64,000 bases of DNA. Source: a virus (taxonomy: Duplodnaviria > Caudoviricetes). The DNA lies in IMG/VR virus record IMGVR_UViG_3300047321_000298, positions 128,001-192,000 of that record. The stretch is one strand, 5' to 3'. The notes under the pieces are model-generated. The model searched no databases. It was not told the origin of the DNA and was given only the letters and a program-made list of their open reading frames with translations. Below are positions 5,287 through 7,693 of this stretch, piece after piece (within the stretch, counting starts at the first letter, position 1; each line of letters starts with the position of its first letter). The position numbers were made by a program, and so were the translations under genes.

Positions 5287-5310
5287 CGTTCTGTGCAGGA
5301 CCTGTATAAT
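5283..5310 (+). promoter_or_regulatory. early promoter cassette copy 7
   Basis: TTGACG-N16-TATAAT; leader AAACGAACCAGGAG. Confidence 0.9.
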
Positions 5311-5352
5311 CGTTTCTGTAGCAGGACAGATCAAACGAACCAGGAGCGGAAG

Positions 5353-5697
5353 ATGAGCCAAGTCGAATACACCAAGGAAGAACGGATGCAAATCGCTAAC
5401 ACTATCATCCAACAACTCGGTGGTCCCGGCCGCCTCAAGGCCATGGCCGGTTGCAAGGACTTCACAGCGATTGACGCGGGTGTTCAATTTGGTATCGGCA
5501 GGAACGCGGCAGGGATCAACAAGGCAATCATCAAGCTCCGCGCTGACGACACCTACGATGTCGAATTTGGCACCGTTCGTATGAACCGGAAGACTTTCGA
5601 GTGCACTTGGACTGTGAAGGACAAGACCGAAGGCGCGTACGCTGACATGCTCAAGAGCCTCTTCGAGCGCGCAACCGGAATGTATCTCACGTTCTAA
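5353..5697 (+). CDS. conserved phage/plasmid hypothetical protein (IxQQLGG...AMxG family)
   Basis: IANTIIQQLGGPGRLKAMAG and DTYDVEF resemble a widespread uncharacterised phage family (from memory). Confidence 0.8.
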   Translation: MSQVEYTKEERMQIANTIIQQLGGPGRLKAMAGCKDFTAIDAGVQFGIGRNAAGINKAIIKLRADDTYDVEFGTVRMNRKTFECTWTVKDKTEGAYADMLKSLFERATGMYLTF

Positions 5698-5804
5698 AAC
5701 CAAGGCCGTCAATGGAATGTCTTTCATCGCATGGCACGGATGGGACCGGTTCGCCGATCCTATAATCGTATTCAAGATCAACGCAACAAAGAAAGGTGAT
5801 TCAA

Positions 5805-5981
5805 ATGACCGAAGCCGAACAAATAAACCAACTTCGTAACGCACTTGAAACGCTTGTTGAGCTTCACGCTAATTGGGATAAAGGAACGGCGTATATTCCG
5901 GTTGCATTTATGCACAAGAATAACGCTGCTATTGCCGCCGCGCGTGAAGCGATGCGCAACAGTCAAACGCGAATCGGTTAA
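5805..5981 (+). CDS. hypothetical protein (58 aa)
   Basis: AAGGTG RBS; TATAAT at 5761 upstream. Confidence 0.6.
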   Translation: MTEAEQINQLRNALETLVELHANWDKGTAYIPVAFMHKNNAAIAAAREAMRNSQTRIG

Positions 5982-6053
5982 GTAATCGCAATGGACCTGC
6001 TAACGGTCATTTGTGCAAGGGGCCTGCGGGCCCTCGCGTTTATCCAGCGCTCT

Positions 6054-6061
6054 AGTAAATA
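6054..6061 (+). promoter_or_regulatory. AGTAAATA motif (candidate phage-specific promoter)
   Basis: Intergenic, right after a GC hairpin (6015-6040), heads the structured region. Confidence 0.5.
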
Positions 6062-6072
6062 AGAAGTAAGAA

Positions 6073-6368
6073 CAGCATACAGAGGGCATCATGTGGTCCA
6101 TTGTTTCGGTGCTGCGGATGGTATTTGCGGTGTGCGTACCGTACGCCCCGTGGCGTGATTTAACTTCTACTGCGGCATCAGCGTGCAGCCGCAGGAATAG
6201 CCGGGGTTGCAGGCCCCTCCAACAGGAATATGGCTAGCTGCTGCGGCTGTAATGGACGCACCCAGCACAGCCGCTTCCATGAACCTAGAGAAAGGTCTAC
6301 TATGGGACTGGTGGCCGCTCATTGACTCATGCGTTAACCTAACGGAGCACATGAGGGGCCGTCACCGG
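6073..6368 (+). ncRNA. candidate structured non-coding RNA, class unknown
   Basis: Seven consecutive stem-loops found by hand (e.g. CTGCGGC/GCCGCAG, GCGGCTGT/ACAGCCGC, ~20-bp hairpin 6308-6368) between AGTAAATA and a terminator. Confidence 0.55.
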
Positions 6369-6370
6369 GG

Positions 6371-6406
6371 AAAAGCCGCGAGCCTAAAAACTTGCGGCTT
6401 TTTCTT
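6371..6406 (+). terminator. intrinsic terminator (CCTAAAAA loop)
   Basis: AAAAGCCGCGAG-cctaaaaa-CTTGCGGCTTTT then TCTT. Confidence 0.85.
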
Positions 6407-6415
6407 AATCTCTTG

Positions 6416-6443
6416 TTGACGTTTTGTGCATCAAGCGTATAAT
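6416..6443 (+). promoter_or_regulatory. early promoter cassette copy 8
   Basis: TTGACG-N16-TATAAT. Confidence 0.85.
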
Positions 6444-6484
6444 CGATTCTGTAGTGCTGATCAACCTGATCCGGGAGTGTAGAA

Positions 6485-7693
6485 ATGCTGACAGTCGCTG
6501 AATACCGCGTTGGTGAATTCCAGAAGAAAATCGAAACATTCAACCGGAAGGCTGCAAAGCTTCAACTCCCCGCAATCTCGTACCGCCAGGTCGATAGCTT
6601 CATCAAGACCATCACGCCTGTCGTTGGCCAGGACGAAGAGGGCCGCGTGATCCAGGGTGAACCGTTCGACATTGTGATGTTCAACTACGAACTCGAAGGT
6701 GCGCTACCCCGGATCAACGGCTGGGCCTTTCACTCACGTGTCGAGCCGACTGACGAGGAAGGCGTGAACCTGGTATACGCAGCGCCCGGATTCGAAGCTG
6801 TTGAGCGTCTGCGCTCCACTCCGATGATCTGCGAGCACTGCAACCGTAACCGTAAGCGCTCGCTGGTGTACCTGCTGCAGAATGCAGAGACGGGCGAACA
6901 GAAGATCGTTGGCAAGTCCTGCCTGAAAGATTTCCTCCCTGACGCGGGAATCGAAAATCTTCTGGCTTACCTTGAATACCTGAAGAAGGTTGAAGAATTC
7001 GAGGAAGACGAAGACTACGAACGCATGCGTTTCAACGCTGTATACGACACGGAACGGGCCATTGCAGAGGCTCTGGTACTGATCAAGCGTAACGGCTACG
7101 TGTCGAAGAAGTTGAGCGCCGAAAAGCCTGATTTGATCCCCACGGCCGTATTTATGGGTCGCAAGGATCAGAAGGAAGCAAACAAGCTGTACACGGCGGA
7201 AGAAATCCGGGCGCAGTTCAGCAATGATGAGCTTGAAGCCCTGGCAGGTTGTGAAGTGCGTAACGTGATCGACTATGTGAATTCGCAAAATCCTGATCGT
7301 TCGGATTTCATCTACAACCTGCAAACGATCATGGTCCAGAAGGCATGCCCGTCCCGGATGTTCCCGTTCGTTGCGGCCGGGGTCCAGATGTATCTCAAGT
7401 CGCTCGAAAACAAAGCGAAGAAGGAAGCGAAGTCGAACGAGCACCTTGGTCAGATTGGCGTACGTTCCGATTTCATGGGGCTGACCGTAGTTCGTGTGAC
7501 TCCTGTCGAAGGTGCATACAACATGACCTACATCACGGGCTTCGAGGATGAGCAGGGTAACTCGATAGTGTGGTTCGCATCGAAGCGGATTGCAGAAGTG
7601 GGTAAGACCGTGAACCTCAAAGCGACGGTCAAGAAACACGATGAGTACAAAGGCCGTAACCAGACGATCATAACGCGCGGCGCGCTTATCTAA
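6485..7693 (+). CDS. 402-aa protein with Zn-ribbon-like CxxC...GxxC and C-terminal OB-fold-like region
   Basis: CEHC...GKSC; C-terminal HLGQIG...FEDEQGN..VWF...LKATVKKHDEYKG..QT pattern typical of phage OB-fold-like domains. Confidence 0.8.
   Translation: MLTVAEYRVGEFQKKIETFNRKAAKLQLPAISYRQVDSFIKTITPVVGQDEEGRVIQGEPFDIVMFNYELEGALPRINGWAFHSRVEPTDEEGVNLVYAAPGFEAVERLRSTPMICEHCNRNRKRSLVYLLQNAETGEQKIVGKSCLKDFLPDAGIENLLAYLEYLKKVEEFEEDEDYERMRFNAVYDTERAIAEALVLIKRNGYVSKKLSAEKPDLIPTAVFMGRKDQKEANKLYTAEEIRAQFSNDELEALAGCEVRNVIDYVNSQNPDRSDFIYNLQTIMVQKACPSRMFPFVAAGVQMYLKSLENKAKKEAKSNEHLGQIGVRSDFMGLTVVRVTPVEGAYNMTYITGFEDEQGNSIVWFASKRIAEVGKTVNLKATVKKHDEYKGRNQTIITRGALI

Follow-up and report, generated by a model that had tools for sequence, protein, structure and literature searches.

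Genomic context

The window analyzed here is a 64,000-nt stretch covering bases 128001–192000 of a virus record of 245.5 kb that has direct terminal repeats. Sequencing runs containing DNA of this phage are rhizosphere, plant, and soil metagenomes, and no RNA dataset is among the runs listed for the stretch. A gap of ~500 nt (5985–6484) separates a small gene (5805–5981) from a gene for a 402-residue protein (6485–7693), and a consensus sigma-70-type promoter at the end of the gap (6416–6443) serves the latter. Within the gap, a promoter box at 6054 is followed on the plus strand by a small open reading frame (ORF), a series of hairpins, and a terminator ending at 6406. A second copy of this unit was sought genome-wide and none was found. 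Positions 6054–6406 probably form a single, independent transcription unit, ~340 nt long, of an uncultivated soil/rhizosphere jumbo phage with a genome of 245 kb. The same good but not overwhelming probability attaches to the identity of its product, an mRNA whose 5′ half would code for a conserved 48-residue peptide and whose 3′ half would form a conserved, strongly folded 3′ UTR. Any role proposed for the unit below is one that we infer from sequence comparison.

The original prediction for this region was a novel noncoding RNA of ~300 nt with its own promoter and terminator. Half of that description held: the 3′ part is a real RNA structure with covariation, and the 5′ half has the signature of a coding sequence. 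Its lack of resemblance to known RNA families was confirmed with Rfam and ARAGORN. Rfam gave no match at gathering scores anywhere in the window. At E values up to 10, a search of 5900–6550 returned only a 12-bit SAM/SAH match (threshold 40), and ARAGORN found no tRNA or tmRNA.

The downstream 402-residue protein belongs to phrog_2319, a family of unknown function, and contains a CxxC...C motif. Its homologues, at 25%–30% identity, occur in many jumbo phages, among them phages of Vibrio and Aeromonas, Ralstonia phage RsoM2USA, and Salicola phage SCTP-2.

Promoter and terminator

The unit opens with the box AGTAAATA in the extended context ctctAGTAAATAagaAGTaag (6054–6072, plus strand), and transcription probably starts a few bases downstream of the box. 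There are 47 copies of AGTAAATA in the genome compared to 4.4 expected, an approximately 10-fold excess. Further sites in the window, located in the same count, include 7748, 10220, 14099, 28010, 31016, and 40781. Most copies lie directly upstream of genes, on the coding strand, and have a common downstream AGT. Genes behind the box code for SSB, DNA polymerase, SbcD, topoisomerase II, a DnaB-like helicase, a ParA-like protein, a cytidyltransferase/NUDIX protein, and a tRNA. The predicted promoter motif at 6054 is confirmed as a member of this over-represented phage class. Given the genes that it heads, AGTAAATA appears to be a promoter of the replication ("middle") class and to stand apart from the 23 sigma-70-like early promoters that crowd the region, and the expression timing of the unit would be that of its promoter class. 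The unit thereby helps define a second promoter class in an uncultivated jumbo-phage lineage.

We found no relevant literature on the AGTAAATA box. Bacteriophage T4 has comparable classes, namely the late box TATAAATA and the MotA-dependent middle promoters, and these are likewise short A/T-rich boxes that are over-represented and located just upstream of genes. The T4 late box and AGTAAATA differ at two positions. Unlike T4 late promoters, AGTAAATA heads replication and nucleotide-metabolism genes and a tRNA, and in this it resembles the middle class.

The early promoters comprise the copy at 6414–6452 of the window and 22 others in the genome, with the extended consensus TTGACGnTnTGTGCA...TGTAyAAT. 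They have a common leader that ends in GAAACGAACCnGGAG.

At the other end of the unit, a scan for intrinsic terminators identified 16 pairs followed by TTTTT at 6367–6406 on the plus strand, a strong terminator where one had been predicted. All homologues carry a terminator in the same place with a different stem sequence, so that position is kept and sequence is not.

Homologous copies and cassette mobility

Eight distinct copies of the unit were identified, one in the window and seven in contigs from public metagenome and sequencing-run assemblies (L060, L081, L062, L071, L067, L079, and L080). Distant relatives were reached through homologues of a 134-residue gene (5293–5697) and then with a profile of the peptide. 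The conserved block starts at an unchanged AGTAAATA box in seven of the eight copies (L080 is without the box) and is closed by the terminator in all eight. Neighboring genes on both sides vary between copies. The prediction of a discrete unit was borne out by these boundaries, which run from the box at 6054 to the terminator at 6406 and are kept in relatives, and the unit is conserved in seven further contigs of related jumbo phages. Judged by this comparison, the unit is a movable cassette, from box to terminator, that has different flanking genes in the seven other contigs. The prediction had also suggested that the RNA might be a substrate of RNA-repair enzymes. This was not supported, with no RNA-repair Pfam family listed among the called genes within 2.5–3 kb of the unit in relatives.

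Close variants in contigs from other rhizosphere runs keep 6019–6452 at ~98% identity and lack 5701–6018, where the window has the small upstream gene together with a promoter and a terminator of its own. One close relative has an extra 631-nt insert located between two copies of the promoter segment 6414–6452. The absent segment and the additional insert together indicate that the region is a patchwork of single-gene cassettes. Since the 631-nt cassette lies between two copies of 6414–6452, the promoter repeats seem to serve as joints at which recombination shuffles the cassettes. The unit is thus an example of single-gene cassettes being shuffled in a phage early region.

The small gene at 5805–5981 lies, together with its upstream region and its terminator, in an insertion of 318 bp; four related phage populations have only AAG at this position. 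In relatives, PIN-domain genes are found in the equivalent early regions, in two contigs beside a small VapB gene or a (faint) RHH gene. Two other related contigs have BrnT/BrnA gene pairs that adjoin the homologue of gene 5293–5697. These toxin-antitoxin-type genes are located at L066:2258–2823, L081:1130–1707, L060:2532–2897, L072:575–1094, and L073:1941–2460.

Further searches delimit the distribution of the unit. The region had no blastn match among GenBank phages, and exact and gapped patterns had none in IMG/VR or in GTDB genomes. A DNA search of five distant relatives, found through the 402-residue neighbor, gave chance-level matches only. Metagenome-contig relatives of the 402-residue protein are all below 52% identity and are all without the element. 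A 17-mer search returned five matches, a number consistent with chance, and these were rejected. Two of the sites are in IMG/VR contigs (L074:7338–7354 and L076:5949–5965), where the frame reads VAVCVP directly after a hydrophobic segment within a larger, secreted-looking protein. These are probably chance matches, though the common frame is curious.

A conserved small ORF in the 5′ half

An ORF encoding 48 residues occupies 6091–6237 on the plus strand and is preceded by the Shine-Dalgarno (SD) sequence GAGGG (6082–6086), 4 nt before the ATG. It is open in all eight copies, with lengths of 41–50 codons. Start codon, stop codon, and SD are kept, and every indel is a multiple of three nucleotides. 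A GAGG/GGAG-type site lies 4–8 nt upstream of the start codon in each copy, with a spacer that differs in sequence. Values of dN/dS range from 0.24 to 0.6, and differences between close pairs are most frequent at the third codon position, followed by the first and then the second. The window and L060, for example, differ at 7, 3, and 11 sites at codon positions 1, 2, and 3. Two close variants have two synonymous changes and one Ser-to-Pro change, the latter also found in L060. Gene callers independently called the ORF on five related contigs (L067, L071, L079, L080, and L081) and did not call it on L060 or L062. Genes this small are commonly overlooked in phages. No other frame is conserved on either strand across the copies. 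A 70-residue ORF on the plus strand (6207–6419) and a 61-residue ORF on the minus strand (6167–6352) were rejected as candidates because they are not conserved.

By its pattern of substitution, 6091–6237 behaves as a protein-coding small ORF. The kept frame and SD site, the indels in multiples of three, and the excess of third-position differences amount to codon-level conservation, and the claim of a purely noncoding RNA failed on this evidence. A reading in which the whole 340-nt transcript acts as RNA, with the frame held open through RNA-level constraint only, would be favored by the atypical codon usage of the ORF. Its log-likelihood is −0.45 per codon in frame compared to +0.09 to +0.45 for neighboring genes, and no frame in the gap scores like the genes of this genome. 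The absence of a protein family match, the strong structure and covariation of the 3′ half, and a single invariant ORF block frozen at the nucleotide level, synonymous sites included, would also fit. Against it stand dN/dS values well below 1 with mostly third-position substitutions, and a frame, start, stop, and SD that are kept through indels of three. The folding of the 5′ half likewise argues against this reading, which we regard as unlikely.

The minimum free energy (MFE) fold of 6054–6406 on the plus strand has an energy of −144.9 kcal/mol (z −3.36, with none of 100 shuffles as good), and the opposite strand has a z score of −1.71. On the plus strand, a genome scan in 350-nt windows, with correction for G+C, places the region 6th of 2455. 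The excess is unevenly distributed. When the stretch is split, the 5′ UTR with the ORF has a z score of −0.4 and the 3′ UTR one of −6.3. Across copies, the ORF part including the leader ranges from −0.4 to −1.8, no better than shuffles in any homologue. An MFE better than that of shuffled controls, as predicted, was therefore obtained for the whole stretch and for the 3′ UTR, and not for the 5′ UTR and ORF alone. Three helices had been proposed between 6073 and 6194 (CAGCAT/GTGCTG, GCGTA/TACGC, and CTGCGGC/GCCGCAG), and none is kept in relatives when a five-copy alignment is inspected by eye. The first of them, described as burying the SD and the start codon, is reduced to 3 bp in the related copies, and the folding energy of the 5′ part is ordinary. 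A predicted junction at 6198–6236 is present in the MFE fold. It includes a tentative G/C-rich hairpin, GGGGU/GCCCC, over G-x-R-P codons (6203–6217, plus strand). Each homologue has a G/C hairpin of 4–5 bp near this site, although an ungapped alignment gave no clear signal for it, and the hairpin may be a by-product of Gly/Pro/Ala codons.

The other top structured windows of the scan are coding, or are terminator or tRNA regions, and are unrelated to the unit. Two of them are outside the window or at its edge. Genome positions 86601–86950 are mostly intergenic, with a tRNA-like stretch and a strong hairpin, and 196501–196850 has a long perfect terminator hairpin between genes.

The predicted peptide

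The peptide has a hydrophobic N-terminus, an invariant AVCVP, usually a Y-x-P-W, and a basic central part that varies; it ends in (Q/K)(Q/L)(E/D)YG, which is QQEYG in the window copy. An AF2 model places a helix at residues 3–15 and is of low confidence elsewhere. Searches of Pfam, PHROGs, and the ESM Atlas gave no match, nor did a word search with the single sequence. With a profile, only 5 clusters were recovered among 1.84 billion representatives, and just five called members were present in a collection of 5.8 billion sequences. The peptide has no detectable relatives outside the small clade of copies, and this and the weak AF2 model count against an mRNA that codes for it. It would belong to a new family. 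Judging by composition, this small peptide most likely associates with a membrane. A lipoprotein or Sec signal at the N-terminus was considered and rejected by eye, as Val precedes the Cys. Such a signal is also unlikely on account of the hydrophobic segment, which is only 12–14 residues long and in one member has an Asp inside it.

These features raise the possibility of a type I toxin-like module, in which a membrane-damaging peptide would be encoded by an mRNA that folds itself into an inactive form and is neutralized by an antisense or trans-acting RNA. A peptide of 41–50 residues (below 60) with a modeled hydrophobic N-terminal helix would suit this, as would a highly structured mRNA with a possible long-range contact. 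The PIN and RHH/VapB-like genes of two contigs and the BrnT/BrnA genes of two others show that toxin-antitoxin-type genes are present among these cassettes. However, the scan found no minus-strand promoter, and the minus strand folds less well. Complementarity to the rest of the phage genome does not exceed chance, no conserved helix covers the SD region, and the 5′ part folds with ordinary energy. The setting is also unfavorable, with the unit carried by a lytic-type jumbo phage under a promoter that it has in common with replication genes. As the tests for an antisense RNA and for a partner in the phage genome both failed, the unit lacks what defines a type I toxin-antitoxin pair, despite a similar general plan, and we judge such a module improbable, although the host might encode a partner. 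We found no relevant literature on type I toxins in jumbo phages.

A structured 3′ UTR

The 3′ UTR, from the stop codon to the terminator, folds with z scores of −3.2 to −7.0 against dinucleotide-shuffled controls in all eight copies, and the plus-strand energy is below the minus-strand energy in every copy. It is a conserved structured RNA element (6238–6406). Three consecutive hairpins predicted at 6243–6274, 6275–6307, and 6308–6368 are all present in the MFE fold and are referred to as H1, H2, and H3.

H1 (6243–6274, plus strand) begins 5 nt after the stop codon and consists of two stem segments and an internal loop. Compensatory double changes occur in 7 of its 11 pairs, and 93% of alignment cells are paired compared to 30%–53% in slid controls. 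None of 500 shuffles reached its score. The stem in L080 needs several G-U pairs and is possible only in plus-strand RNA. The hexaloop ACGCAC (6256–6261) is invariant in all eight copies.

H2 (6275–6307, plus strand) is a hypervariable spacer hairpin in the MFE fold of the window. A close relative differs from it by six substitutions and three deletions, and other hairpins replace it in L060, L062, L067, and L079. The layout from H1 to the terminator differs between lineages, and the stretch between H1 and H3 is not a rigidly conserved fold.

H3 (6308–6368, plus strand) is a long interrupted hairpin with an inner stem (6326–6331/6350–6355) and an 18-nt apical loop (6332–6349). Seven copies keep the loop (..UAACCUAACGGAG..), L067 and L080 only weakly. 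The stem sequence around it differs in most lineages, with inner stems of CUCAUG/CAUGAG, CACG/CGUG, GCGCG/CGCGC, AUGGUCG/CGACCAU, and AUGGCCGG/CCGGCCAU. A G-to-A change at 6314 in relatives converts a G-U pair of H3 to A-U. RNAalifold predicted no pairs for the tip of H3, where the register shifts by one base between lineages. In L071 (3551–3583), the apical segment is the exact reverse complement of that in the other copies and is flipped between the stem arms, which makes a strictly sequence-specific RNA role for the H3 loop hard to reconcile.

The flipped segment in L071 bears on whether these inverted repeats act in DNA, as recombination-prone palindromes or as binding sites for a double-stranded DNA-binding protein, with RNA folding incidental. 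Such a reading would explain two further observations, that the minus strand of the 3′ UTR, too, is folded well beyond its shuffles and that the region is especially prone to gain and lose cassettes. In contrast, the plus strand is always the more stable of the two, and several stems tolerate G-U pairs in the plus strand that would be A-C mismatches in the minus strand. The element is also always flanked by a promoter and a terminator that point the same way. We give a role at the DNA level very little credence.

A second possibility concerns the two loops. Conserved loops on covarying stems are the usual signature of a recognized or pairing loop, and both H1 and H3 present a sequence-conserved loop on a covarying stem. 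The unit could therefore be a dual-function RNA, with a 3′ domain, possibly released by processing, that acts in trans via these two loops. It might then be a base-pairing regulator, a decoy for a factor that reads early ribosome-binding regions, or a partner in intermolecular loop-loop pairing. Within the H3 loop, UAACGGAG is similar to AAC(C)GGAG, the context found in the 23 early leaders, although the similarity is short and judged by eye, and two complementary hexaloops described below could equally pair between molecules. On the other hand, a search of the phage genome gave no target, its other hairpins contain neither of the loop motifs, and the H3 loop is inverted in one homologue (L071). 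A search for RegA or RegB detected no homologue, and the search controls also gave no match. These modes taken together have only a small probability. The same low probability applies to a 3′ domain that acts beyond its own mRNA as an early-leader decoy, as a regulator of host RNA, or by forming dimers or rings via ACGCAC-GUGCGU, with translation of the peptide through the GUGCGU hairpin switching its activity. The decoy or scaffold role mentioned in the original prediction found no supporting evidence and is retained only as this low-probability reading of the 3′ domain.

A candidate contact between the ORF and the 3′ UTR

In the preferred reading, a structured mRNA that codes for the peptide, the conserved H1 loop has a candidate partner within the ORF. 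The only nucleotide block of the ORF that is invariant in all copies is TGCGGTGTGCGTACC (6126–6140), 15 nt in length. Ten 6-mers are common to the eight ORFs, all of them from this block, and ACGCAC is the only 6-mer common to the eight 3′ UTRs. The block contains GTGCGT, the exact complement of the H1 loop; we estimate the chance of this at ~10/4096. TGCGGTGTGCGTACC codes for Ala-Val-Cys-Val-Pro, and the synonymous sites of A-V-C-V are fixed in all copies, in contrast to those of other conserved residues. RNAalifold predicts a small hairpin inside the ORF (6126–6143, plus strand) with a 7-pair stem without variation that presents GUGCGU (6132–6137).

GUGCGU and ACGCAC are both invariant in the eight copies, and each is predicted to be in or at a hairpin loop. 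Complementary invariant loops, the ORF hairpin, and the frozen synonymous sites lead us to propose a loop-loop contact in which the H1 loop would pair with the GUGCGU hairpin of the ORF within one mRNA. The elements are small. The ORF hairpin is weak in the consensus fold (−7 kcal/mol), and the ACGCAC/GUGCGU duplex would have only 6 bp (−7.7 kcal/mol). Since neither partner varies, covariation speaks neither for nor against the contact.

The phage-specific AGTAAATA promoter would, in this explanation, drive an mRNA whose first half is translated into the 48-residue peptide. The H1 loop ACGCAC would pair with the GUGCGU loop in codons 14–16, and this contact between the ORF and the 3′ UTR might couple or limit translation, or might compact or stabilize the mRNA. 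The remaining hairpins and the terminator may protect the 3′ end.

Kissing complexes such as those of ColE1 RNA I/RNA II, the HIV-1 dimerization site, and phi29 pRNA likewise have perfect 6-nt loop complementarity. Unlike in those complexes, both loops proposed here are in one mRNA, one of them is inside a coding sequence, and the contact is predicted from conservation. The unit has no resemblance to ColE1, HIV-1, or phi29 pRNA in sequence or genomic setting. Alone, it answers no long-standing question. It would be a compact case of an mRNA in which the coding part and the 3′ UTR are both under RNA-level constraint, and it offers a concrete 6-bp loop-loop hypothesis that is open to synonymous changes.

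Comparison with known systems

The mRNAs of type I toxins (hok/sok of plasmid R1, AapA1/IsoA1, and Fst/RNA II) also code for a peptide of ~50 residues with a hydrophobic helix. They and the unit are alike in being heavily folded and much longer than the ORF, with long-range contacts proposed or known. Unlike in those mRNAs, the structure of the unit is in its 3′ UTR and not around the start codon, and the SD is outside any conserved helix. The unit also has no sequence similarity to type I systems, has no antisense or trans-acting antitoxin RNA that could be found in the phage genome, and belongs to a jumbo phage, where it stands behind a promoter of the replication class.

Dual-function small RNAs (RNAIII/delta-haemolysin, SgrS/SgrT, and SR1/SR1P) are also short transcripts that combine a small ORF with conserved hairpin loops. 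They differ from the unit, in which the ORF fills the 5′ half, no target RNA is predicted, and the loops are not C-rich or otherwise complementary to an SD.

The aimP-aimX arrangement of the arbitrium system in Bacillus phages likewise places a peptide gene, of ~43 codons, ahead of a noncoding RNA, and its peptide too combines a hydrophobic N-terminus with a conserved pentapeptide at the C-terminus. Unlike arbitrium, the unit has no adjacent AimR-like receptor, its N-terminus is too short for a typical signal peptide, its flanking genes vary between copies, and its RNA region lies in its own transcript.
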